Below are positions 1 through 53,839 of a stretch of 64,000 bases of DNA, one piece after another. Source of the stretch: Solirubrobacteraceae bacterium (GTDB taxonomy: Bacteria; Actinomycetota; Thermoleophilia; Solirubrobacterales; Solirubrobacteraceae); NCBI GenBank assembly GCA_025449845.1, contig JANWIP010000002.1, forward strand, positions 21,868 to 85,867. Direction: 5' to 3'. The notes below the pieces were generated by a model that was not told the DNA's origin, did no database searches, and worked only from the letters and a program-made list of their open reading frames with translations. The translations under genes were made by a program, and so were the position numbers. Numbering within the stretch: position 1 is the first letter of the stretch; the number at the start of each line of letters is the position of its first letter.

Positions 1-162
1 CACGATCCACAACGCACGCTGGAGCGCGGATATGCGCTGGTGCAGAGCCCGACAGGCGAGCCGCTTGCGACAGCCGAGCAGGCCAAGCGACAGGGCAATG
101 TGCAACTGCGCTTCGCCGACGATACGGTTGCGGCCAGGATCGAGCCCAATGACGATGACTGA
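1..162 (+). CDS. xseA: exodeoxyribonuclease VII large subunit, C-terminal fragment (runs off the window start)
   Basis: Frame 1 is open from base 1 to TGA at 160-162 (..LERGYALVQSPTGEPL..). It overlaps the xseB start and sits immediately upstream of xseB, as in the canonical xseAB pair. Confidence 0.6.
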   Translation, partial: HDPQRTLERGYALVQSPTGEPLATAEQAKRQGNVQLRFADDTVAARIEPNDDD

Positions 163-409
163 CACACCCCCAGCGCCCAAGCAGACATACGAGGCCGCGG
201 CTGCACGCGTGGAGGAGATCATCCGCCGTCTGGACTCCGGCGAGGCCAGCCTGGGTGAGACGCTGGAGCTCGTGAAAGAGGGCAAGACGCTGATCGAATA
301 TTGCGCCGGCGAGCTTGAGGCTGTCGGGGGGGCGCTAGAGGAGATGCGCCTGGACGAGCTGGTGGCGCGTCTGGAACGCGATGCCGGCAGCGGCGGAGGC
401 AACCCGTGA
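149..409 (+). CDS. xseB: exodeoxyribonuclease VII small subunit
   Basis: ATG at 149. The sequence YEAAAARVEEIIRRLDSGEASLGETLELVKEGKTLIEYC is typical of XseB. The 32..409 ORF was trimmed to the internal ATG that overlaps the xseA stop. Confidence 0.85.
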   Translation: MTMTDTPPAPKQTYEAAAARVEEIIRRLDSGEASLGETLELVKEGKTLIEYCAGELEAVGGALEEMRLDELVARLERDAGSGGGNP

Positions 410-488
410 GCCGTAGGGCACTCGTGAGCCGTGGGCAACTCGTGAGCCGTGGGCAACTCATGAGCCGTGGGGGCAACTTGTGAGCACC
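396..488 (+). repeat. 18-bp tandem array (about 5 copies, GTGAGCCGTGGGCAACTC) spanning the xseB stop to the next gene's GTG start
   Basis: GTGA/ATGA motifs at 406, 424, 442, 460 and 480, with spacings 18, 18, 18 and 20. The first copy holds the xseB TGA (407-409). The last copy holds the GTG start at 480. Confidence 0.9.
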
Positions 489-1529
489 TGGGAGCTGCTT
501 GCAGAGCTGCCGGTGGAGATCGAGAGCTGCACGCTGGAGGGCCTCTCGGCGAAGGTTTCGAGCGACTTTGAACGCCTGTCCACCGTCATCCACCTGCATG
601 GCAAGGATGAGGAGGGCATGGGTGAGGACGTGACATATGACGCCCCGGACCACGAAATCCTCCAGGCCGCCGGACCCCCGCCGGAGCTCAAAGGCAGCTG
701 GACTATGGCCAGCTTCTGCGAGCAGGTGGCCAAGCTGGACCTGTTCCCGGAGCTCCCTCAGCGCGAAGTGTCGCGGCGTTACCGGGTGTGGGCGTATGAG
801 TCCGCCGCTCTTGATCTGGCGCTGCGTCAGGCAGGTACCACGCTGCACCAAGCACTGGGGCGCACTCCTGAGCCGGTGCGCTTTGTGGTGTCGCTGCGCC
901 TGGGCGAGCCTCCCATCATGGAGCCGCTGCGCAGGCGCCTGGACCTGTACCCGTGGCTGAACTTCAAGCTCGACCCCACGAGCTCCTGGAGCCAGCCGCT
1001 AATCGAGGAGCTCAAGGCAACGGGCGCTGTGGAGTCGGTGGACTTCAAGGCGTACTACACAGGCTCGATCGTGGACCAGCCGGCGGACCCGGTGCTGTAC
1101 CGGCGCGTGGTCGAGGCGTTCCCGGACGCCTGGATCGAGGACCCGGCGCTAACGATCGAGACGGAGCCGGTCCTGGCGCTGCACCGCGAGCGCTTCTCCT
1201 GGGACGCGCCGATCCACTCGATCGAGGACATTCAGTCGCTGCTCTACCCACCGCGGATGGTGAACATCAAGCCTTCGCGTCTGGGCGGGCTGCGCAACCT
1301 GCTGGACGCGTTTGACTTCTGCGCCCAGCAGGGCATCGGCAACTACGGCGGCGGCCAGTTCGAGCTGGGCGTGGGTCGCGGTCAGATCCAGTACCTGGCG
1401 TCGCTGTTCCACGCGGACGCCCCCAACGACGTGGCCCCCACAGGCTTCAACCTGCCCGAGCCGGCGCCTGGACTGCCCTCAAGCCCTTTGGCGCCGACGG
1501 CGTCGGATACGGGCTTTCGCTGGGGTTAG
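480..1529 (+). CDS. enolase-superfamily-like protein (MR/MLE-type C-terminal barrel motifs), function unknown
   Basis: 349-aa ORF with GTG start. WIEDP and VNIKPSRLGG resemble the metal-ligand and barrel motifs of mandelate racemase/muconate-lactonizing enzymes. The family assignment is tentative. Confidence 0.5.
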   Translation: MSTWELLAELPVEIESCTLEGLSAKVSSDFERLSTVIHLHGKDEEGMGEDVTYDAPDHEILQAAGPPPELKGSWTMASFCEQVAKLDLFPELPQREVSRRYRVWAYESAALDLALRQAGTTLHQALGRTPEPVRFVVSLRLGEPPIMEPLRRRLDLYPWLNFKLDPTSSWSQPLIEELKATGAVESVDFKAYYTGSIVDQPADPVLYRRVVEAFPDAWIEDPALTIETEPVLALHRERFSWDAPIHSIEDIQSLLYPPRMVNIKPSRLGGLRNLLDAFDFCAQQGIGNYGGGQFELGVGRGQIQYLASLFHADAPNDVAPTGFNLPEPAPGLPSSPLAPTASDTGFRWG

Positions 1530-1609: not shown

Positions 1610-3172
1610 ATGGCAAGCAAAGGTATCCACAAGCGCTCCTGGTCCTGGGCTGCGGCAGCCATTCTGGTGCTGCTGAGCATGCTGGCGCACGCCCCGGGAG
1701 TCTTGGCGAGCGCCAACCCCGGAGGCACCTCCCCCGGCGCCACTCCCAGCACCGGCCCCACGGGAGGGGCGACTCCCGCGGCTGCTCCGCGCCGCGCCAC
1801 CAGCCGCGGCAGGCGCGTGGTGAGGTTGTCGGACGCGCGCTGCGCGCCGTCCCCGAGCTGCACCACGAACCCCCATCAGGTGTCGGTGCGCGGTTACCTG
1901 GTGCTCTCGGGGCGGGGTCTTGAGAAGGGCCTGCGCGTGGCGTTCCCGCGCGTGCGCAACGCGGCGATCGCCCCCAACTCGCCGATGGCTCGCATCTACC
2001 AGTCGCCTTCGGGCTTGGCGGTGCACCTGCCGGGCAGCGCGCACTCGGGGCGGATCGCGGTGCTGGTGGGAGGCGGGCGGAAGTCCAACCCGGTAGGGCC
2101 GATCACGGTGCTTCCGTACGCGCTGCACCCTCCGCGGCCGAAAGCCCCGGCCCCCGCCCCTCCGGCGCAAGCGGCCAACGGGAGCGCGTTCGAAGGCCAG
2201 GGCATGTGGATCTGGTACGTCAGCAAGTCCTCAGGCGGCAACCTCCCGGCGCTCGTGGCGCAGGCCCACGCGGCAGGCGTCAGCACCGTGTTCGTGAAGA
2301 GCAGCGACGGCTCAAGCAACTACTGGAGCCAGTTCTCACCGGAACTGGTGGCGACGCTGCACGCCAACGGCCTGAAGGTCTGCGGCTGGCAGTACGTCTA
2401 CGGCACGAACCCCGTCGGCGAGGCTGAACTGGGCGCGCGCGCCGCGCAGGCAGGCGCGGACTGCCTCGTGATCGATGCGGAGTCAGAGTACGAAGGCCAC
2501 TACGCCTCAGCGCAGAAGTACATCGAAACGCTGCGCGCGGCTGTAGGCCCCGCCTACCCGGTAGGCCTGGCCTCCTTCCCCTACGTCGACTACCACGAGT
2601 CCGAGCCCTACTCCGTCTTCATGGGCCCCAATGGCGCGCAGTTCAACGCGCCGCAGATGTACTGGAAGGCCATCGGCACCTCGGTGGCCAACGTCTTCGC
2701 GCACACCTACGAGGAGAACCTGATCTACGGCCGCGCGATCGCGCCGCTGGGGCAGACTTATGAAAACCCCTCCTCCTCGGATCTCGTGGCCTTCCGCTCG
2801 CTGGCGGCGGCCTATGGCGCGCGCGGGCTGTCGTGGTGGGACTGGCAGGAGACCTCGACAGGTGGCTGGGCTGCCCTGGCGGAACCGCTGAACACGAGCC
2901 TGACGGTGCCCAACCCCGAGCTGACCTCTCCCCTGCTGGGCGAAGGCTCAAAGGGCGATCAGGTGCTCTGGATGCAGGAGCACCTCGCCACTGCCATCCC
3001 GGCGCAGGCGACGAGCGGCATCTTCGATGCGACCACGGCGTCTTATCTGGCGCAGTTCCAGACGGCTCATGGCATCCCAGCGACGGGCAAGACGGACCCG
3101 AGCACCTGGGCTGCGCTGCTGGCCTTGCCCCCCGTCGCCGTGGACTGGACCGGCGGCGGCCCCGCGGGCTGA
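1610..3172 (+). CDS. secreted protein with a glycoside-hydrolase-like (GHL10/DUF4015-like) core and a C-terminal peptidoglycan-binding domain
   Basis: Signal-peptide-like N-terminus (WSWAAAAILVLLSMLAHAPGVLASA). The C-terminus GDQVLWMQEHL..FDATTASYLAQFQTAHGIPATGKTDPSTWAAL matches the PG_binding_1 pattern. Confidence 0.6.
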   Translation: MASKGIHKRSWSWAAAAILVLLSMLAHAPGVLASANPGGTSPGATPSTGPTGGATPAAAPRRATSRGRRVVRLSDARCAPSPSCTTNPHQVSVRGYLVLSGRGLEKGLRVAFPRVRNAAIAPNSPMARIYQSPSGLAVHLPGSAHSGRIAVLVGGGRKSNPVGPITVLPYALHPPRPKAPAPAPPAQAANGSAFEGQGMWIWYVSKSSGGNLPALVAQAHAAGVSTVFVKSSDGSSNYWSQFSPELVATLHANGLKVCGWQYVYGTNPVGEAELGARAAQAGADCLVIDAESEYEGHYASAQKYIETLRAAVGPAYPVGLASFPYVDYHESEPYSVFMGPNGAQFNAPQMYWKAIGTSVANVFAHTYEENLIYGRAIAPLGQTYENPSSSDLVAFRSLAAAYGARGLSWWDWQETSTGGWAALAEPLNTSLTVPNPELTSPLLGEGSKGDQVLWMQEHLATAIPAQATSGIFDATTASYLAQFQTAHGIPATGKTDPSTWAALLALPPVAVDWTGGGPAG

Positions 3173-7141: not shown

Positions 7142-7420
7142 TCAGCCCAATCCGTCGATCTCAGCCGCCAGCGCGAAGTCGGCTCCCGTGAGGCCTCCCT
7201 GCGAATGCGTGCTGAGCTCCAGGCGCACCTTGTTCCAGCCGTGCACGAGGATGTCGGGATGGTGGTTGGCCCGCTCGGCCAGCTCGGCGACGCGATTGAC
7301 GAAGACAATGGCCGCGGCGAAGTCAGCCAACTTCCACTCACGTACGATCGCCTCGCCCTCACGAGCCCAGTCGCTGTCCGCGAGCTGCTGCTCGATCTCC
7401 TCATCGCTCAGCCTGCTCAT
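7142..7420 (-). CDS. 4a-hydroxytetrahydrobiopterin (pterin-4-alpha-carbinolamine) dehydratase
   Basis: 92 aa. Contains FVNRVAELAERANHHPD..W..V..L.TH, the characteristic PCD motif. Confidence 0.85.
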   Translation of the reverse strand: MSRLSDEEIEQQLADSDWAREGEAIVREWKLADFAAAIVFVNRVAELAERANHHPDILVHGWNKVRLELSTHSQGGLTGADFALAAEIDGLG

Positions 7421-7498
7421 CCTCGAACCTCCTGCTCGCTCAACCTACTCATCACTCAATCTCCCAATCGTTTGCGCGCGGGCACTACATTCCGGGGT

Positions 7499-8398: not shown

Positions 8399-8484
8399 GC
8401 GTCTGAAAGGGCCTTTGACGGCCGAAGGGCTTGACGGCTGAGCGGCTTTGACGGCCGAAGAGTTGGCGGCAGAGCTTGACGAGA
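8391..8484. repeat. stop-codon duplication (GCGTCTGA x2) followed by 16-18-bp repeats (AAGGGCTTTGACGGCCG, about 4 copies) between convergent genes
   Basis: GCGTCTGA at 8391-8398 (contains the stop) and again at 8399-8406. Copies at 8407-8424, 8425-8440 and 8441-8457, with degenerate copies to about 8484. Confidence 0.8.
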
Positions 8485-16770: not shown

Positions 16771-17474
16771 GCGGGGGTGGTGGCGAGCTCGGCCTCGAGC
16801 CCGGCCACCAGAAGGCCGTCGCGCAACGTGTGGACGCGGTCGACGTACTCGATGGCCTGCGGATCATGCGTGACGAGCACCCCGGGTATGCCACGTTCGT
16901 GGCAGATGTCGCGTAGCAGCGCGTGGATCTCGCGGCTGCGCCGGGAGTCCAGATTCCCGGTCGGCTCGTCGGTCAACAGCAGCCGCGGTTCATTCACCAG
17001 CGCACGGGCGATCGCCACGCGCTGGCGCTCGCCCATCGAAAGCTGCCGCGGGGTGTGCATTTCGCGCTCGGTGAGGCCGACGCGCGCAAGCCAGGGCCGC
17101 GCCTCAACCCGGGCAGACGCCAGGCTGTAGCCATCCGCCAGCAGCTTCAAGGCGGCGTTGTCAATTGCGGTGGCCCCCGCGATCAGGTGGAACGCCTGAA
17201 AGACGAACCCCACCTCGCGGCGACGGTAGACGGCGCCATCGTGTGCGGAGAGCCGCGATATGTCGCGTCCGTCAAACAGGACCTTCCCCGCATCGGGCTC
17301 CATTAGGCCCGCGGCCATCAGCAGCAAGGTCGTCTTGCCCGAGCCGCTTGGTCCATACAGCGCGACGAACTCGCCCGGAGAGACGGTCAGCGAGATGCCG
17401 TCCACGGCGCGTACCACCTCTCCACCGGCGCGATAATGCTTGACGAGGTCGCTGAGCTCCAGGCTGCTCATCAC
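16767..17474 (-). CDS. ABC transporter ATP-binding protein (canonical motifs)
   Basis: Walker A GPSGSGKTT, signature LSMGERQRVAIARAL, Walker B LLLTDEPTGNLD, H-loop VLVTHD. Confidence 0.9.
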   Translation of the reverse strand: MMSSLELSDLVKHYRAGGEVVRAVDGISLTVSPGEFVALYGPSGSGKTTLLLMAAGLMEPDAGKVLFDGRDISRLSAHDGAVYRRREVGFVFQAFHLIAGATAIDNAALKLLADGYSLASARVEARPWLARVGLTEREMHTPRQLSMGERQRVAIARALVNEPRLLLTDEPTGNLDSRRSREIHALLRDICHERGIPGVLVTHDPQAIEYVDRVHTLRDGLLVAGLEAELATTPA

Positions 17475-18211
17475 GCTGATGGCTCAGCGCGAACGGCGCG
17501 ACGGTCGGGAAACGCGAGCACGACTCCCGCCGGATCCATCGAACGCAATTCCCCGTTTGAAATGGACATGCTCCGGCGTGCACCGGCGAGCGCCTCAAGA
17601 TCCTCGGAGGCGACGAGCACGGCGAGCTTGCTGTCGTTGGCAAGCGAGCGCAGCAGTGCGTAGAGCTCCCCACACTCCAGTGGGCTGGGAGAGACGGCGG
17701 GCTCGTCGATCAGCAAGAGGCGCGGCTCCCGGACGATCGCCCGCGCCAGCGCGACCCGTATGCGCTCCCCCTGCGAAAGTCTGCCGGTCCACACGTCCGC
17801 GCATTCTCCGGCACCCACTTTTTCCAGGGCGCGCCGCGCCAGAGGCCGTGCCTCGCGCAGACTGATGCGATCGCCCAACAGCGGCATGGCGACGCTGTCC
17901 ACCGCGGGTTGACTGAGCTGGGGGCGCCAGTCTCCCGAGACGTGCGCGATGCCGTGCGCGCGCAGCAGTCGGGCGCGCTCATTGGCCCCCATGCTCGTGA
18001 GTACGTGACCGTCAAAGCAGACCGCCCCGGCATTGGGCGCCTCAATGCCGGCCGCGACACGCAGCAAGGTGGTCTTGCCGGAGCGCCGAGGTCCCCAAAC
18101 GCCGACGAAATCGCCGGCATCCACTTCCATGCACACCCGGTCGAGGACCGCGACCTCCCGTCGCCCGTCCCCGTAGCGTCTGGTCACCTGGGTGAGCGAA
18201 AGAAGGGTCAT
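17471..18211 (-). CDS. ABC-type ATP-binding protein with degenerate D-loop and H-loop
   Basis: Walker A GPRRSGKTT, signature LSQGERIRVALARAI and Walker B LLLIDEP. The D-loop is AVSPSP instead of TxxLD, and the H-loop position reads VLVASEDLE with no His. Confidence 0.8.
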   Translation of the reverse strand: MTLLSLTQVTRRYGDGRREVAVLDRVCMEVDAGDFVGVWGPRRSGKTTLLRVAAGIEAPNAGAVCFDGHVLTSMGANERARLLRAHGIAHVSGDWRPQLSQPAVDSVAMPLLGDRISLREARPLARRALEKVGAGECADVWTGRLSQGERIRVALARAIVREPRLLLIDEPAVSPSPLECGELYALLRSLANDSKLAVLVASEDLEALAGARRSMSISNGELRSMDPAGVVLAFPDRRAVRAEPSA

Positions 18212-18242
18212 GGCCGCGGGAGCGTCATCTCATCACGCGACA

Positions 18243-18821
18243 CTAGGACGGCGTTGCTACCTCGGAGATCAGGCGGCGGGCAAGCACGATCCATTCGAGC
18301 TCGGCGCGCAGATGCAGGCGTGCCGAGGCACGGGAGAGATGCATGGCGATGCCCGCGAAGGAGCGCAGCAGTGGCGCGTCCTGCGAGCTGGCGTTGAACA
18401 GGGCGAAGCACTCGCGCTCGTAGGCATCCAAGGCCGCCAGCAGACGCGGCGCGTCAGGCGCACGGGCGACGGCAATCTTGGCCTGGAACTCCGCACGAAC
18501 AGGGGCCATGCGCGTACTCGCACTCATCCACTCGGTCAGGGCGGGCTCGGCAAGCAGAGTCGGAGAGTAGACCCGCCGATTCCCAGTAGGTCCATCACTC
18601 AAGACCCGTCGCGAGGAGACCAGGCCCGCCCGCTCAAGCTGTTCGAGCATGCGGTAGAGGTCTTTAGCGGTTATCTGCCACGCGGGCCCGAGGCGCCGAT
18701 CGAGACGATTCGCCAGGTCGTAACCGTGTCCTGGTCGTTGCAGCACGAGGCCCAGCAGTGCCCCCTTCAAAGGCGAGCTGCCTCGCATCCAGTCCCTGTT
18801 TCCGGCGCTTACGGCTTCCAT
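18243..18821 (-). CDS. PadR-family transcriptional regulator
   Basis: The winged-helix segment LKGALLGLVLQRPGHGYDLANRL......ITAKDLYRMLEQLERAGLVSS is typical of PadR. It is the first gene of the ABC/DUF2600 operon. Confidence 0.8.
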   Translation of the reverse strand: MEAVSAGNRDWMRGSSPLKGALLGLVLQRPGHGYDLANRLDRRLGPAWQITAKDLYRMLEQLERAGLVSSRRVLSDGPTGNRRVYSPTLLAEPALTEWMSASTRMAPVRAEFQAKIAVARAPDAPRLLAALDAYERECFALFNASSQDAPLLRSFAGIAMHLSRASARLHLRAELEWIVLARRLISEVATPS

Positions 18822-18985
18822 TGCGTGTACGGCTCCTGATTCGCTGAATGGAACAGTACCTTACATCGACACGAGTTGCGAAATGGATGCCTTCAAGTAG
18901 CTGGAGCTTTGGCAGTCACAGTCGAGCGTTCCTGTCAAGCTGGTCTTTGCCCTACAGCCCTTTGCGTCAGTTCGAACGCCTTCGT

Positions 18986-19057
18986 CTGCGCATCGAGCAG
19001 CCTGTTCGCCTACGCATCTCGAAGCCTGTTCGCCTACGCATCGAGCAGCCCGATCTC
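18986..19057 (-). repeat. 3 x 24-bp tandem duplication of the LuxR-gene 3' end including its stop codon
   Basis: Plus-strand copies at 18986-19009, 19010-19033 and 19034-19057. The true TAG is at 19034-19036, a second in-frame TAG is at 19010-19012, and the third copy has CAG. Confidence 0.9.
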
Positions 19058-24410: not shown

Positions 24411-26270
24411 TCAGCGCCGGGGAAGTCTTTTTAAGGGGACTCCCGGAGGGAGTCCTGGGTTGGCCGCGTTGTGCGGGGAAGCCAATGGGCGGTGCACGTC
24501 AGGGCGTTGCCCGCTGCTATCGGTGTGTTCCTGCGGACCTATGGGCGGACGCGGACCCGAAAGCGGATGCGGACCTAAAGGCGGATGGGGACCCAAAGGC
24601 GGATTGGGACTCGAAGGCGGATTAGGATCCCCTACGGCCTGCGATACGTCGCCGAGGTCTTCCTGCGTGCCCGACCGAGGGCTGCAGTTGCCGCCGCCAC
24701 GTGACCCGCGGCCAGCGCTTGCGGAAGAGCTTGAATGCGGAGGGTCTACGGCGCTGCCACTCACACCCCCGGTGTGTTCACGAGAGGGCCGGGGCAGGCG
24801 GCGAACAGCCGCACGAGCGGAGCGCAGTGCAGAGGCGGAAGCTGGAGAGGTGACGCGCTGGGAATGGCCGAGAACGCCGTGCACCGTGTGTTCGAGGAGA
24901 CCGCCGACTTCGTGGACGACGGTGCCTACTGGACCGGTGGTCTGCGAAGTGGAGCCACCGGAAGGGGGAGGCGGAGAGCTGCCTTCTGATGCTCCGCCGG
25001 ATCCTTCCGCGCCTGCGCCACTGCCACCACCCGTGGAGCCGCCCCCCGATCCCCCGCTACTGCCGCTACCACCACCAGATGCAGGTTCCTGCGAACCGCC
25101 GCCCGTAGAGCCGCCGCTCGATGAACCACCCGAGCCGCCGGAGGAGCCTGGGGGTGGAGCACCGGAACCCGGAGCGGAGCTCGACGGCGGGGGCTGACTC
25201 GAGGACGCGGGAACCTGAACGGTGTAGCTCGTAGGAGTGGTGCCCTTGGGGACCATCGCCGCGAAGTGATGCGGGAAGACCGCCGATATGCGATGCGAAG
25301 TACTCGGGGCCACCGCTGTGACTTGCAGGCGTATAGGCCTGTCATGGTGAGCAAGCTGCCGGGCAGGAGCGTGCCCAGAGGAGATACCGACCCCAATACT
25401 CGCGGGAGAGCCGGCGGCGGGCACGCCACCCCCACTGGGAGCGCCAACGCCGGCGGTCTCGTGCCCGGCCCCGCCGGCAACGGAGTGAGCGTGGCGATGG
25501 ACAGAGGAGCCGGAATGCACGATGACGGTGCCGGTGATGACAGTGCCCGCAGTGAGTGCGGCAAGACCACCAGCCGCAAGCGAGCCCTTGACCAGCAGGC
25601 CGCCCAGCCCGAGGCCCCCGCCGGCGGCCAGTTCGCCGACGCGTTCGGCGCCGATGCCCTGGCCAGAGCCGGCCATCCAGGTGAGCAGCGGCGGAGGGGT
25701 GAGCGCGGTGATGGCGGTACGCAAGGTGGCGCGAGCGCGGTAGAGAAGTCCCCTGACAGCACCGTCGCTGATGCCCAGCGCGGTGGCAACCTCTTCGTGG
25801 CTGTGGCCAGCGAGAGCGGTGCGGAAGATGACCTCGCGTTGCATCTGCGGGAGCGCTGCCATGTCGGTGACGGCCTCGCGCAAGGCGAGACCGCCGGCCA
25901 GGTCGGAGTCGACCGCGGCGGTCTCGGCGAAGTTCAGGTCATCCAGATCGACGGCGAGGTTCGAGCCATCGCGGGCGGCGTCGCGGGCGATGTTCACGGC
26001 GGTGTTGTGGGCAATGCGGTAGAGCCAAGGCCGCAGCTCGCGCACCTGCGCGCCGCGGCGCAAGGCGGACCAGGCCTGTAGGAGCGACTGCTGGACGACG
26101 TCTTCGGCGCGGTTCTCGGAGACGGAGATGCGCCAGCAGTAGCGCAAGAGCGGCCGGCGATAGCGCTGGACGAGCGCCTCGAAGGCGCGATCGTGCCCCG
26201 CGCGGGCCATTGCGGCAAGCCGCTCGTCGGACTGCGTGGCCAGCAGGCGGGTGGATGCCTTGGGACTCAT
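24411..26270 (-). CDS. ECF-type sigma factor fused to a transmembrane segment and a long Gly/Ser/Pro-rich C-terminal extension
   Basis: Residues 1 to about 200 carry sigma regions 2 and 4 (DVVQQSLLQAWSAL, RPWLYRIAHNTAVN, LPQMQREVIFRTALAGHSHEEVATALGISDGAVRGLLYRAR). These are followed by a hydrophobic segment (GGLAALTAGTVITGTVIV) and about 380 aa of low complexity. Confidence 0.8.
   Translation of the reverse strand: MSPKASTRLLATQSDERLAAMARAGHDRAFEALVQRYRRPLLRYCWRISVSENRAEDVVQQSLLQAWSALRRGAQVRELRPWLYRIAHNTAVNIARDAARDGSNLAVDLDDLNFAETAAVDSDLAGGLALREAVTDMAALPQMQREVIFRTALAGHSHEEVATALGISDGAVRGLLYRARATLRTAITALTPPPLLTWMAGSGQGIGAERVGELAAGGGLGLGGLLVKGSLAAGGLAALTAGTVITGTVIVHSGSSVHRHAHSVAGGAGHETAGVGAPSGGGVPAAGSPASIGVGISSGHAPARQLAHHDRPIRLQVTAVAPSTSHRISAVFPHHFAAMVPKGTTPTSYTVQVPASSSQPPPSSSAPGSGAPPPGSSGGSGGSSSGGSTGGGSQEPASGGGSGSSGGSGGGSTGGGSGAGAEGSGGASEGSSPPPPSGGSTSQTTGPVGTVVHEVGGLLEHTVHGVLGHSQRVTSPASASALRSARAAVRRLPRPSREHTGGVSGSAVDPPHSSSSASAGRGSRGGGNCSPRSGTQEDLGDVSQAVGDPNPPSSPNPPLGPHPPLGPHPLSGPRPPIGPQEHTDSSGQRPDVHRPLASPHNAANPGLPPGVPLKRLPRR
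24537..24626 (-). repeat. 5 x 18-bp in-frame minisatellite encoding P-[NHR]-P-[PL]-x-G hexapeptides near the sigma-fusion C-terminus
   Basis: Plus-strand copies begin at 24537, 24555, 24573, 24591 and 24609 (ACCYAAAGGCGGATGSGG). Confidence 0.9.
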
Positions 26271-29884: not shown

Positions 29885-31275
29885 AGCGGTAGCAGTTCAA
29901 AGCCGGCCGCGCCGTCGCGGACCTCCCAGCCGAGCGCAGCGATCTCATCACGCAAGCGATCGGCGGTGGCGAAGTCGCGCTGCTCGCGCGCATGGTCACG
30001 CTGCGCCGCCAGTTCGCGTACCTGCTCCGGAGCGTCGGCTACCGGAGCCAGTAGCGACTCGAGACCGAGGACACCGAGCATTTCGCGCAGATGCGAGTCG
30101 CCTGTACCAAGGTGCTGGTCGCCTGTAACCAGGTGCGAGTCGCCTGGAGCATTTCCGCCGGCCAAAGCGATGGCCTCGCGCAGCCACTCATTGAGCACGG
30201 CCAGCGCCTCAGCGGTATTGAAGTCACGGGCAAGAACAGCGAAGAAGCGATCGCGCACCCCGTCGAGAGCAGCGGGGGAATCGCCCTCGGTCAACCTGCG
30301 TGCAGCCTCGCGGATGCGGCCCACATTCGCACGCGCCTGCTCCAGAGCAGCCTCGGAGAAGGCCAGTGGCTGGCGATAGTGCCCGCCGATGAGGTACATC
30401 ACGACGGACTCGGCACCGTAGCCCTCGATGACCTCGTGCAGCAGAGCGATGTTGCCGACCGACTTGGCCATCTTCTCGCCGGTGGACTGAATCATGCCGT
30501 TGTGCACCCACAGCCCCGCCAGTTCGTGCCCGCGCGCGGCGCGGGTCTGGGCTGCCTCGTTCTCATGGTGGGGAAAGACGAGATCCGAGCCGCCACCGTG
30601 GACGTCAAAGCCAACGCCAAGCAGGCTCTCGGCCATCGCCGAGCACTCGATGTGCCAGCCGGGTCGGCCCGGCCCCCAAGGCGACTCCCAGAAAGTGTCC
30701 TCTCCCTGCTTGTGCGCCTTCCAGAGGGCGAAGTCCAGCGGGTCCTGCTTGCGGTCAGAGCCCTCGACGCCCTCACCCTGGTCCATGTCCTCGATGCGAC
30801 GATGCGAGAGGGAGCCATAGCCATCGTCAGAGCGCACGCGAAAGAACACATCGCCCCCGCTCTCGTAGGCGTGCTCCTTGTCGATGAGCGTCTGGATGTA
30901 GTCGATGATCGGCCCCATCGTCTCCGCCGCGAGCGGCTCGTGGTCGGGCCGGCCGAGGCCTAGGGCGCCTGTGTCGGAGAAGTAGGCATCGGTCATCTCG
31001 CGCGCCAACTGCTCGCTAGCCACGCCGGCGTTGCGCGCGGCGACGTAGATCTTGTCATTGACGTCGGTGACGTTCACCACCAGTGTCACCTGATAGCCCT
31101 CGTGCTCCAGAAAGCGCTTCATCAGGCTGAAGATCACAAACGGGCGGGCGTTACCGATGTGGATGCGGCTGTAGACCGTAGGCCCGCAGGCGTAGATGCC
31201 GACCCGCCCGGGGTCGCGGGGCTTCAGCGGCAACAGCCCGCCCGAGCGGGTGTCGTGCAGACGAATCTCGCGCAT
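29881..31275 (-). CDS. cysS: cysteine--tRNA ligase
   Basis: HIGH (CGPTVYSRIHIGNAR) and KMSKS (KMAKSVGN) motifs. ATG at 31275. The 586-aa extension overlapping ispF was rejected. Confidence 0.93.
   Translation of the reverse strand: MREIRLHDTRSGGLLPLKPRDPGRVGIYACGPTVYSRIHIGNARPFVIFSLMKRFLEHEGYQVTLVVNVTDVNDKIYVAARNAGVASEQLAREMTDAYFSDTGALGLGRPDHEPLAAETMGPIIDYIQTLIDKEHAYESGGDVFFRVRSDDGYGSLSHRRIEDMDQGEGVEGSDRKQDPLDFALWKAHKQGEDTFWESPWGPGRPGWHIECSAMAESLLGVGFDVHGGGSDLVFPHHENEAAQTRAARGHELAGLWVHNGMIQSTGEKMAKSVGNIALLHEVIEGYGAESVVMYLIGGHYRQPLAFSEAALEQARANVGRIREAARRLTEGDSPAALDGVRDRFFAVLARDFNTAEALAVLNEWLREAIALAGGNAPGDSHLVTGDQHLGTGDSHLREMLGVLGLESLLAPVADAPEQVRELAAQRDHAREQRDFATADRLRDEIAALGWEVRDGAAGFELLPL
30088..30150 (-). 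repeat. 3 x 21-bp in-frame repeat inside cysS encoding GDSHLVT-GDQHLGT-GDSHL
   Basis: Plus-strand copies at 30088-30108, 30109-30129 and 30130-30150. Confidence 0.9.
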
Positions 31276-31303: not shown

Positions 31304-31780
31304 TCAGCGACTGCGCAAGCTGGCGGTGGCAAGCGCGGCGACGCCCTCGCCGCGACCGATGAAGCCCATGCCCTCGCCGGTGGTGGCCTTGATGTTGACG
31401 CGGGCGGGCGCAAGACCCAGCGCCCGGGCGAGTGCCTCACGGATCGCCTGCTTGTGCGGAGCGAGCTTGGGCCGCTCCATGATGACGGTGCAGTCCACGT
31501 TGACGATCTCAAGCCCGGCAGCGATGACAGTGGTGACAACCGTCTCCAGCAAGGCCAGCGAATCGGCGTCTCGGTAGCGCTCATCGGTGTCGGGGAAGTG
31601 CTCGCCGATGTCTCCGAGCCCGGCTCCGCCGAGCAGGGCATCGATCAAGGCGTGGATCAACACATCGGCGTCGGAGTGCCCATCCAGACCGCGCTCGTAG
31701 GGAATCTCCACGCCACCCAGGATGAGCTTGCGCCCAGGGACAAAGCGATGGCAGTCATAGCCAATGCCGGCGAGGCTCAC
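31304..31780 (-). CDS. ispF: 2-C-methyl-D-erythritol 2,4-cyclodiphosphate synthase
   Basis: [21 protein letters not shown] and the overall length (158 aa). GTG start at 31780. Confidence 0.93.
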
Positions 31781-31880
31781 AGCACACCAGCCCCGCTCAC
31801 AGCATCAGCCCTGCTCACATCAGCCCTGCTCACAGCATCCCTGCTCACAGCACCAGCCCCACTCACAGCACACCAGCCCC
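31777..31880 (-). repeat. 6-copy 15-20-bp tandem array (..GGGCTGRTGCTGTGAGC..) spanning the PHP-gene stop to the ispF GTG start
   Basis: Minus-strand GTGA motifs begin at 31866, 31848, 31833, 31818, 31800 and 31780, with spacings 18, 15, 15, 18 and 20. The first contains the PHP TGA. The last contains the ispF GTG. Confidence 0.9.
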
Positions 31881-32702
31881 AATCGGCTCCGAGCGCCGCT
31901 GACGATGCTCGAAGACGCATAGCTCCCCCACCCCGAGGCTCGCCAAGAGCTCGAGCGCCTGCTCGTAGTCGGCGCCGATGTCCTCGGGGCGGTGGGCGTC
32001 ACTGGAGAGCGCCACGGGGCAGCCGGCTTCCAGGCACATCTCAAGCAAGGCGGGTGCAGGGTAGATCTCCTGCGCGCGCTTGCGCAAGCCGGCAGTGGAG
32101 ACCTCGATGGCGATGCCCGACTCGGCGATGCCATCCATCGCAAGCTCGTAGTAGCGACGCAGATCGCCTTCGGGCAAGGGCCGCTCAACACCCCAAACCT
32201 TCACGAGGTCGGGGTGGGCGAGGATGTCGAACAGGCCCGAGCGCGCAGCCTCCCCCAGCGTCTGGAAGTAGCGCCGCCAGATGTCCTCGGCGCCGCGTGT
32301 CGATGCCCACACGCTCCAGTCCTCCATGTCCAGAGATTGATCGCGGAGAAAGTGAACGGAGCCCACGACATAGTCGAAGTCGCGGGACTGGAGCAGATTC
32401 GCGGTGCGATCCTCGGCGCCCCGCACGAAGTCGGCCTCGATGCCCAGCCGCAGATCGGTGTCCTCCCGCACGAAGCGGCAGTAGTCATCGAGATCGTCAT
32501 GTGCATATTCACGCCACAGGGGATGCTGCCACACCTCTAAGGCCTGGCGGAAGCGATAGATGTGCTCGGACACCCCCAGCTCTCCGATCTCCCGTTTCTC
32601 CGCGGCTTCGCGATAGCGCTCGGCGTTGGCAGCGGTGAAGTGCTCATCCGCGGTGGCGGCGAGGTCATCGGGGCGCAGATGCGTGTGGTAATCGGTGAGC
32701 AT
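31863..32702 (-). CDS. PHP-family histidinol-phosphatase-like protein
   Basis: The N-terminal MLTDYHTHL plus later SVHF, ILAHPD and LSSDAH motifs are characteristic of HisJ/HisK-type PHP phosphatases. Confidence 0.8.
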   Translation of the reverse strand: MLTDYHTHLRPDDLAATADEHFTAANAERYREAAEKREIGELGVSEHIYRFRQALEVWQHPLWREYAHDDLDDYCRFVREDTDLRLGIEADFVRGAEDRTANLLQSRDFDYVVGSVHFLRDQSLDMEDWSVWASTRGAEDIWRRYFQTLGEAARSGLFDILAHPDLVKVWGVERPLPEGDLRRYYELAMDGIAESGIAIEVSTAGLRKRAQEIYPAPALLEMCLEAGCPVALSSDAHRPEDIGADYEQALELLASLGVGELCVFEHRQRRSEPIGAGVL

Positions 32703-35290: not shown

Positions 35291-35384
35291 TTAGGCAGGG
35301 CTATGCCGCGGCGCGCGGCCGAGCGCTCTCCGCAAGGTAGGCAGGGCTACGCCGCAGCGCGCGGGCGAGCGCGGTCCGCAAAGG
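35291..35384 (-). repeat. 2 x 47-bp tandem duplication of the radA 3' end including its TAG stop
   Basis: Plus-strand copies at 35291-35337 and 35338-35384. The second copy carries the last 12 codons and the TAG (35347-35349) of radA. The first copy carries a paralogous ATAG. Confidence 0.85.
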
Positions 35385-43470: not shown

Positions 43471-43560
43471 GACGGGAACCGCTCCGCGGAAGGACGGGGA
43501 ACCGCTCCGCGGAAGGACGGGGAACCGCTCCGCGGGGGAAGGGCTCCGCTTCGCTCCGCC
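43471..43560. repeat. 22-23-bp tandem repeat x3 plus a degenerate tail (GACGGGGAACCGCTCCGCGGAAG) between coaX and dusB
   Basis: Copies at 43471-43492, 43493-43515 and 43516-43541. Each contains the palindrome TCCGCGGA. Confidence 0.85.
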
Positions 43561-51974: not shown

Positions 51975-52082
51975 TTTTGCCAGCAAGACACGCCGCTATT
52001 TTGCCCGCAAGACACGCCGCTATTTTGCCAGCAAGACACGCCGCTAGACGGCTACTGCTTTTGCGGACAAGCTACGCCGCTA
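51975..52082. repeat. 24-bp direct repeats (TTTTGCCAGCAAGACACGCCGCTA): 3 near-perfect copies plus 1 degenerate copy, just upstream of the MMPL promoter
   Basis: Copies at 51975-51998, 51999-52022 and 52023-52046, with a degenerate copy at 52059-82. Confidence 0.9.
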
Positions 52083-53593: not shown

Positions 53594-53707
53594 ACAACGT
53601 CAATACCATCGCACACAAACTTTAAAACAAAGACCCCCAACCCCCGCCTTTATCTTCCCTTTAGCCTCCGCGCTGGGCCTGGCTCCCCCATGCTGACCTC
53701 CGCTCCG

Positions 53708-53831
53708 CCTCCATCTCTGCCTTCTCGCCACCTCCATCCCTACCGTCGCGCCTCCATCCCTACCGTCGCGCCTCCATCCCTGCCGTCGCTCCGCCTCCAT
53801 CCCTGCCGTCGCGCCCCTCCATACTGCCGCG
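53708..53831. repeat. 20/23-bp tandem repeat, about 6 copies (CCTCCATCCCTACCGTCGCG), between the ftsH stop and folP start
   Basis: Copies begin at 53708 (degenerate), 53731, 53751, 53771, 53794 and 53814 (degenerate). Confidence 0.9.
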
Positions 53832-53839
53832 CCGCGCAC

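Follow-up and report, generated by a model that had tools for sequence, protein, structure and literature searches.

Does a tandem repeat that occupies the stop/start overlap of two operon genes break their translational coupling, or does it keep the chain of overlaps intact? The question is raised by two short arrays in a 64,000-nucleotide stretch of a Solirubrobacteraceae genome (hereafter the window; GC content 66%), one between xseB and a DUF8230 gene (site 1) and one between a PHP-family gene and ispF (site 2). The initial annotation had proposed that the site-1 array preserves an unbroken chain of stop/start overlaps. Having compared the window with about 170 related sequences, whose loci carry L numbers below, we consider it probable that the arrays are slippage-type junction duplications, tolerated only while ribosomes are relayed across them by termination-reinitiation. 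The features at site 1 are:

1-162, plus strand: 3' end of xseA, exonuclease VII large subunit (Pfam PF02601; also in the source annotation)
149-409, plus strand: xseB, exonuclease VII small subunit, 86 aa, stop TGA at 407-409 (Pfam PF02609, E = 9e-14; source annotation agrees)
396-400, plus strand: GGAGG, a Shine-Dalgarno-like motif 5 nt upstream of GTG406, read from the sequence
398-485, plus strand: site-1 tandem array (TRF: period 18, 4.8 copies, 87% matches, score 121)
406-483, plus strand: site-1 bridge mini-ORF of 25 codons (ORF listing, frame translation, chain walk)
480-1529, plus strand: DUF8230 gene (PF26684/PF26685), 349 aa, GTG start, enolase-superfamily-like (homologue alignment, precomputed Pfam families, weak MenC-like match)

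The two genes flanking the array are co-oriented, and the copies between them lie head to tail. GTGA or ATGA motifs occur at 406, 424, 442, 460 and 480, with spacings of 18, 18, 18 and 20, as the initial annotation had read them and as both the sequence and TRF confirmed. Three units are of 18 nt each (406-423, 424-441 and 442-459) and the terminal one, at 460-479, is of 20 nt; in it the final ~14 nt of xseB (GGGGGCAACTT) recur, placed before the real start of the downstream gene. Sequence comparison revealed that the xseB C-terminus, ending in GGGNP before the stop, is common to the window and its relatives, and that, in relatives whose genes overlap directly, a G-run is present at the distance of the GGAGG at 396-400, which we take as the ancestral ribosome-binding context of this junction.

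The 25-codon ORF claimed for 406-483 was recovered in the ORF listing. Its GTG406 overlaps the TGA of xseB, its own TGA at 481-483 overlaps GTG480, and the array's internal TGAs are read as GTG-AGC. Since the internal GTG/ATG codons at 424, 442 and 460 share this frame, any initiation within the array would stop at the same TGA. The dependence of this termination on the 20-nt final spacing was likewise borne out, as with an 18-nt last unit the mini-ORF would read in frame into the downstream gene. The mini-ORF is presumably translated. GTG480 is taken as the real start of the DUF8230 gene because the alignments of 80 homologues to the 349-aa protein begin at residue 1-3 and the source annotation calls both xseB and this gene alike. 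An in-frame N-terminal extension of DUF8230 in the window was considered and rejected; the frame is open back to 417 and holds no start codon. The terminal unit also carries an SD-like GGGGG 6 nt before GTG480, from which the downstream gene could initiate independently to some extent. By restoring this G-run the 20-nt unit possibly does more than set the frame.

The same architecture had been pointed out at 31777-31880. It is real, lies on the minus strand, and comprises the following features:

31863-32702, minus strand: histidinol-phosphatase (PHP family) gene, stop TGA at 31865-31863 (Pfam PF02811; NCBIfam NF005596, E = 8e-65)
31775-31880, minus strand: site-2 junction-derived array (TRF score 108, sequence, independent assembly L170)
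31777-31866, minus strand: site-2 bridge mini-ORF of 29 codons (frame translation, chain analysis)
31304-31780, minus strand: ispF, 2-C-methyl-D-erythritol 2,4-cyclodiphosphate synthase, GTG start at 31780 (Pfam PF02542, E = 3e-67; TIGR00151)

The PHP gene and ispF are co-oriented as well. GTGAG motifs are spaced by 18, 15, 15, 18 and 20 nt along the minus strand, and the last 20-nt unit is an exact repeat of the 14 nt (GGGGCTGGTGTGCT) that precede the first GTGA. The start GTG of the 29-codon mini-ORF overlaps the TGA of the PHP gene, and its terminal TGA overlaps the GTG of ispF; in the units that contain CTGATG, the mini-ORF takes the sole open phase. The arrays of the two sites have only GTGAGC in common, each unit copying its own junction. 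At both sites the gene boundaries agree with the public annotation of the source MAG and with the N-termini of homologues.

Judged on the window alone, the pattern of frames lacks statistical significance. Each insert was shuffled, its length was jittered by 0-2 nt and the same chain test was rerun; in this simulation the probability of a chain was 0.52 at site 1 and 0.49 at site 2. As the chain is kept in about half of the random versions, significance has to come from the comparative data. Over 24 events, the same simulation null gave a joint P of ~10^-5.6.

Site 1 was scanned with one genome per species in 80 Solirubrobacterales loci, 57 of which have xseB directly upstream. A plain NTGA overlap was found in 35 of 58 xseB-linked loci, and one further locus (L021) shows a direct overlap followed by a later frameshift. 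Across the 22 insertion-bearing relatives and the window, the chain is unbroken in 23 of 23. Twelve of these loci, the window included, maintain it through NTGA-to-NTGA mini-ORFs of 6-54 codons, and in 11 the downstream ORF is lengthened N-terminally, in frame, from the NTG that overlaps the TGA of xseB. The chain-breaking length class was not found among site-1 loci with xseB upstream. An independent array in L032 consists of a 17-nt unit repeated three times, every copy forming its own 6-codon ORF, and the duplication in L005 copies the N-terminus of the downstream gene. The bridge peptides of site 1 are unrelated in sequence between species.

The PHP-ispF junction gave a similar picture, with direct overlap in 57 of 72 metagenomic loci and 7 of 7 long inserts (6 independent events) forming mini-ORFs of 12-33 codons that run from NTGA to NTGA. 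Eight distant PHP-ispF loci lack an insert and show a short gap at a CTGA or TAG, so not every member of the order needs the overlap. Judging from these counts, both array junctions evidently began as direct NTGA overlaps. Taken together, inserts of at least 16 nt at sites 1 and 2 keep the chain in 33 of 33 loci (23 plus L162 and L164 at site 1; 7 plus L173 at site 2). A third junction in the same loci, xseA to xseB, shows 38 direct overlaps and 10 chains of 5-29 codons, and no long untranslated gap was found there in the loci scanned. Many of the chain-keeping inserts are non-repetitive, yet form exact NTGA-to-NTGA ORFs (L038, L043, L051, L082, L089, L097), and even inserts of only 11-23 nt are bridged (L014, L029, L078, L173). 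At all three junctions, every bridge ends in an exact -4 overlap or in frame.

Features outside this pattern were noted as well. In 23 loci without xseB (L013, L018, L024, L025, L027, L029, L037 and others) a conserved leader precedes the DUF8230 homologue, ~120 nt upstream of position 3001 (...ggcttgcg.gagcg...cccttggtgttgcttgccac...cagtctaagctgagccgctgtg). No Rfam match was found at this leader; the c-di-AMP riboswitch matches in the scanned loci lie ~2.5 kb away on the other strand. In a 92% relative (L166:225-704), xseB is lengthened to 159 aa by an in-frame tandem repeat within the coding sequence of the C-terminal tail, and the direct ATGA overlap with the downstream gene is retained.

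As controls, the ispD-PHP and ispF-cysS junctions of the same loci, which lack an ancestral overlap, were analyzed in the same way. The length classes (0, 1 and 2 mod 3) and chains were:

ispD-PHP control: 13, 16 and 15; chains in 1 of 55 non-direct loci
ispF-cysS control: 6, 10 and 8; chains in 0 of 26 non-direct loci
Controls pooled: 19, 26 and 23, a uniform distribution; chains in 1 of 81 non-direct loci
Coupled junctions, sites 1 and 2: 15, 0 and 21; all long inserts chained

The absence of the chain-breaking class (length 1 mod 3) gave a Fisher P of 2e-6 when loci are counted and 1e-3 when events are counted conservatively; since the loci are phylogenetically related, the locus-level P values are inflated, and the event-level value for the length class is only ~1e-3. 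Part of the pattern is mutational and not selective, as amplification of an 18-nt unit keeps the frame automatically. A comparison of mod-3 unit lengths between coding, intergenic and junction contexts, based on crude gene calls, was discarded because the intergenic class was contaminated by uncalled genes (33 of 53 units divisible by 3). A crude genome-wide chain survey, which offers no clean null, served as a source of further examples and was left out of the statistics.

Closer relatives, obtained by protein search, show the arrays in several states:

Site 1, L162 (98% identity): 18, 18, 20, that is, one 18-nt unit fewer with the terminal 20-nt unit kept, and a 19-codon bridge
Site 1, L164 (94% identity): 42 + 20, bridge intact
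Site 1, L163, L165, L166 and L167 (91-95% identity): direct overlap without an array
Site 2, L170 (identical): the same array in an independent JGI metagenome assembly
Site 2, L171 and L172 (97% and 95% identity): bare ancestral junction GGTGTGCTGTGAGCCTCGC
Site 2, L173 (94% identity): a single 20-nt insert, forming a 7-codon ORF

At site 1 there are thus four units in the window, three in L162 and none in L163 and L165; at site 2 there are five in the window, none in L171 and one in L173, where the one-unit 20-nt state is found in nature. With head-to-tail copies (TRF scores 121 and 108) whose number differs between close strains, the arrays are variable-number tandem repeats. The terminal unit of site 1 measures 20 nt in 3 of 3 array-bearing genomes and closes with GGGGCAAC followed by 2 nt, which duplicates the final ~14 nt of xseB. 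The behavior that the initial annotation had suggested looking for in related strains, namely steps in multiples of 3 with the terminal 20-nt unit kept, was seen in both L162 and L164. L162 shares the site-1 array, which is therefore older than the divergence of L162 from the window strain; the site-2 array is younger than this divergence. The central claim of the initial annotation, that the array keeps the stop/start chain instead of breaking coupling, accordingly gains support from the ancestral overlap, the 33 of 33 inserts, the controls and the strain variants, with coupling as the presumed target of selection.

Other signals were sought. No promoter-like or terminator-like site was detected in or near the arrays at either junction with a sigma-70 consensus scan, a model that may not fit this lineage. 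The RNA fold of 380-520 was no better than that of shuffled sequences (z = 0.12), and a structured element was rejected. Rfam gave no match at the array at the gathering threshold, and its sensitive mode returned only a meaningless H19_3 match (E = 0.49).

We hypothesize that both arrays are young slippage-type tandem duplications of the 4-nt GTGA overlap and its flanks, to which the upstream gene contributed its final ~14 nt and the downstream gene its first codons. The segment duplicated first probably measured 20 nt (2 mod 3) and would by itself have formed a self-contained mini-ORF. Internal copies would then have lost 2 or 5 nt, giving units of 18 or 15 nt, and been re-amplified and fused into one longer mini-ORF, a fusion that would lower the number of re-initiation events; this order of events is our reconstruction. 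A ribosome terminating at the upstream TGA would re-initiate at the overlapping GTG, which at site 1 has a perfect GGAGG 5 nt upstream, translate the array, terminate on the TGA that overlaps the real start, and re-initiate there. The arrays would persist since their total length keeps ribosomes on the message. As bridge peptides are unrelated between species, it is probably the act of translation that matters, and the peptide itself would be irrelevant.

Published measurements fit this model. According to the results given in PMC10666635, termination-reinitiation coupling drops off sharply as the untranslated distance grows and has almost disappeared at about 22-38 nt, so that an insert of 70-82 nt would have to be translated. 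[quoted passage not shown] Short ORFs are described as able to deliver ribosomes to a downstream gene (PMC12548453).

The comparative data also bear on other readings of the arrays. They could be neutral slippage products without any coupling, with the downstream gene starting on its own SD-like G-run and the bridging frame a coincidence of units that are multiples of 3. The GGGGG before GTG480, the abundance of tandem arrays in this genome (67 TRF rows in the window) and the chance of ~0.5 per array of keeping the chain all agree with this. It is nevertheless decidedly unlikely, given that the chain is kept in all 33 long inserts at two junctions and in 10 of 10 at the third, that class 1 mod 3 was never found, that non-repeat inserts too form exact NTGA-to-NTGA ORFs, and that the control junctions are uniform with 1 chain in 81. 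Translation of the insert could instead be maintained for another reason, such as avoidance of Rho-dependent polarity, protection of the mRNA against decay or the unfolding of secondary structure near the downstream start. A ribosome-covered insert would likewise avoid polarity, and what the data show is ORF coverage of the inserts. Such functions would, however, tolerate ORFs that overrun the start (1 mod 3) or stop a few nt short, neither of which occurs among roughly 27 events; all bridges end in an exact -4 overlap or in frame. Bridged inserts of 11-23 nt are moreover too short for Rho loading (L014, L029, L078, L173), and the predicted fold of the array is no stabler than that of shuffles. 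We consider this explanation unlikely.

The array could also be an adaptive rheostat, in which copy number or re-initiation steps tune the xseB:DUF8230 or PHP:ispF ratio, or it could encode a functional micropeptide. Copy number does differ between 98%-identical strains, and an extra termination-reinitiation step should cost efficiency, to judge from the results of PMC10666635. Yet close relatives do without the array (L163, L165, L167, L171, L172), bridge peptides at the same junction are unrelated between species, and no two arrays have more than GTGAGC in common, which makes either function very improbable. The source is a short-read MAG and the difference between the 18- and 20-nt units of site 1 falls within a G-run (GGG against GGGGG), so one may ask whether an assembly or sequencing error, e.g., in a homopolymer, gave rise to the 20-nt unit, the repeat being in truth an in-frame extension of the N-terminus. 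This is hardly credible: the site-2 array is identical in the independent JGI assembly L170, the 20-nt terminal unit recurs in L162 and L164 from other projects, and the 2-nt difference at site 2 is a TG dinucleotide and not a homopolymer. Were the unit only 18 nt long, an in-frame extension would still maintain the chain.

A TRF scan over 875 kb of loci yielded further junction-derived arrays that preserve the chain, namely in L002 (38 + 38), L003 (47 + 47), L010 (38 + 44), L046 (22 + 32 + 32), L048 (27 + 30) and L069 (20 + 63). Three arrays in the scan appeared broken and were set aside, none of them being at an operon junction: one lies in a divergent intergenic region of the window (7400-7459), one is a convergent terminator hairpin (L074), and one is an intragenic repeat with a period of 99 (L111). 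The array at 7400-7459 (minus strand) holds 3.8 copies of a 16-nt unit taken from the start region (ATGAGCAGGCTGAGCGATGAG) of a PCD-like gene (7142-7420, minus strand; 92 aa). Its unit is 1 mod 3, its frames contain stops and it shows no frame constraint; start-region duplication thus occurs where the coupling constraint is absent, too.

Other repeats and bridges of the window were recorded along the way. On the minus strand, a non-repeat bridge occurs at 18208-18245, where the final G of a PadR-like gene's TAG stop is also the first base of the GTG opening an 11-codon ORF, the TGA of which overlaps the ATG of an ABC-transporter ATPase gene (17471-18211). Further short arrays are ordinary intergenic ones (8407-8475, 18981-19050, 24532-24622, 35292-35381, 43474-43535, 51975-52046, 53705-53833), with periods of 16-46 nt and all sequences different; one consists of 2.7 copies of a perfect 23-mer. 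Within cysS, at 30092-30146 on the minus strand, the coding sequence contains a 21-nt in-frame repeat (GDSHLVTGDQHLGTGDSHL). Tandem duplication appears to come easily to this lineage.

Inserts of other kinds were found in relatives. A G-run/C-run inverted repeat (GGGGGGAGG...CCCCCTCC) marks two families of inserts that sit directly behind GTGAGCACC, one at L007:2941-2998 (also in L009, L010, L015, L016, L026 and L044) and the other at L061:1556-1628 (also in L065 and L068). Their lengths, 57, 66 and 72 nt in the former and 63, 72 and 117 nt in the latter, are all multiples of 3; read from the start codon at the overlap with the xseB stop, they extend the N-terminus of DUF8230. A dispersed intercistronic element of ~100 nt occurs between xseB and DUF8230 in L022:306-395, L067:2900-3004 and L040:2840-3004, and between PHP and ispF in L091:2843-2944. 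The L067 and L091 copies match with z = 12.5 against shuffles, and all copies contain a bridging ORF that ends in DDP(K/Q) before a stop on ATGA. An nhmmer search of the 875 kb found no copies beyond the 4 seed copies.

These observations may reflect a broader rule, which we advance tentatively as a possibility open to doubt: in Solirubrobacterales, DNA landing in -4-overlapped junctions must be translated from overlap to overlap, be it an array, the small dispersed element or an unrelated insert of 11-161 nt. Were this rule true, it would amount to natural-selection evidence that ribosomes of this lineage have essentially no re-initiation scanning range. Array evolution would become predictable: a primary unit of 2 mod 3 would give way to 0 mod 3 units, with a single re-initiation module kept at the end, and differing numbers of relay steps might provide a heritable means of setting subunit or pathway stoichiometry. 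Whether ribosomes scan to a distant start or need overlapping stop and start codons is still disputed, with contrasting experiments summarized in PMC10666635. The junctions analyzed here offer a natural experiment on this point, in which about 27 independent insertions at three ancestrally overlapped junctions have all been "repaired" by relay ORFs and neighboring non-overlapped junctions drift freely. As all inserts are relayed and the controls are free, coupled junctions of this lineage would not tolerate untranslated gaps. The 74-nt and 86-nt arrays, together with natural variants of 0, 1, 3 and 4 units, are ready material for work on relay ORFs, and the findings are relevant to short-ORF annotation and to the reading of intergenic repeats in high-GC genomes.

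Termination-reinitiation at ATGA/GTGA overlaps is well known (Oppenheim & Yanofsky 1980; Huber et al. 2019, PMC6728339; PMC10666635). The window arrays resemble such gene pairs in the canonical -4 overlap at both mini-ORF ends (GTGA at 406 and 480, and at 31866 and 31780) and in ancestral junctions that are plain -4 overlaps; they differ in that at least two re-initiation events would be chained through an ORF of non-coding origin, in place of one event between two genes. In the ribosome-delivery ORFs and bicistronic designs of Shell et al. 2015 and Sun et al. 2021, as cited in PMC12548453, a short ORF likewise only hands the ribosome to the next start. Those ORFs are placed in the 5' leader, whereas the window ORF is operon-internal, fed by the upstream gene and apparently born of repeat expansion. 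The genic repeats of Borgs, as presented in PMC9879509, share with our arrays that reading-frame selection decides which unit lengths survive. The filter described there is divisibility by 3 inside ORFs, and at junctions of the window type it is 0 or 2 mod 3 for the whole insert. The latter class is allowed because the frame must shift by one stop/start overlap. In contingency loci, slipped-strand phase variation switches genes on or off when repeats break the frame. The arrays are similar in having slippage-prone units beside a start codon and a strain-variable copy number; unlike contingency repeats, they show only frame-neutral changes.

The closest parallel is the mycobacterial MIRU. In a 2025 review it is described as apparently mobile, inserting at start codons with an internal ORF coupled at -4 nt and with minimal impact on expression (PMC12548453, citing Supply et al. 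1997); PMC2734929 gives units of 40-100 bp at 41 loci in M. tuberculosis. As in these accounts, tandem repeats lie between co-oriented operon genes at both array sites, the start and stop of the ORF overlap the flanking stop and start by -4 nt (406-483; 31866-31777), copy number varies between strains, and the arrangement is proposed to permit insertion with minimal effect downstream. Unlike the MIRUs described there, which form a dispersed family of shared sequence, the window arrays are each derived from their own junction and have only GTGAGC in common; their units are 15, 18 and 20 nt long against 40-100 bp, and the host is a member of Solirubrobacteraceae, all relatives of the window being MAGs of uncultured Solirubrobacterales, and not a mycobacterium. 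The ~100-nt dispersed element is a closer MIRU analogue than the window arrays. By analogy, the window arrays would work like MIRU ORFs but fall outside the MIRU family. MIRU-style coupling, then, would need no mobile element and could arise from the junction's own sequence; what is new is this locally derived origin, together with internally controlled comparative evidence suggesting that selection enforces the relay.
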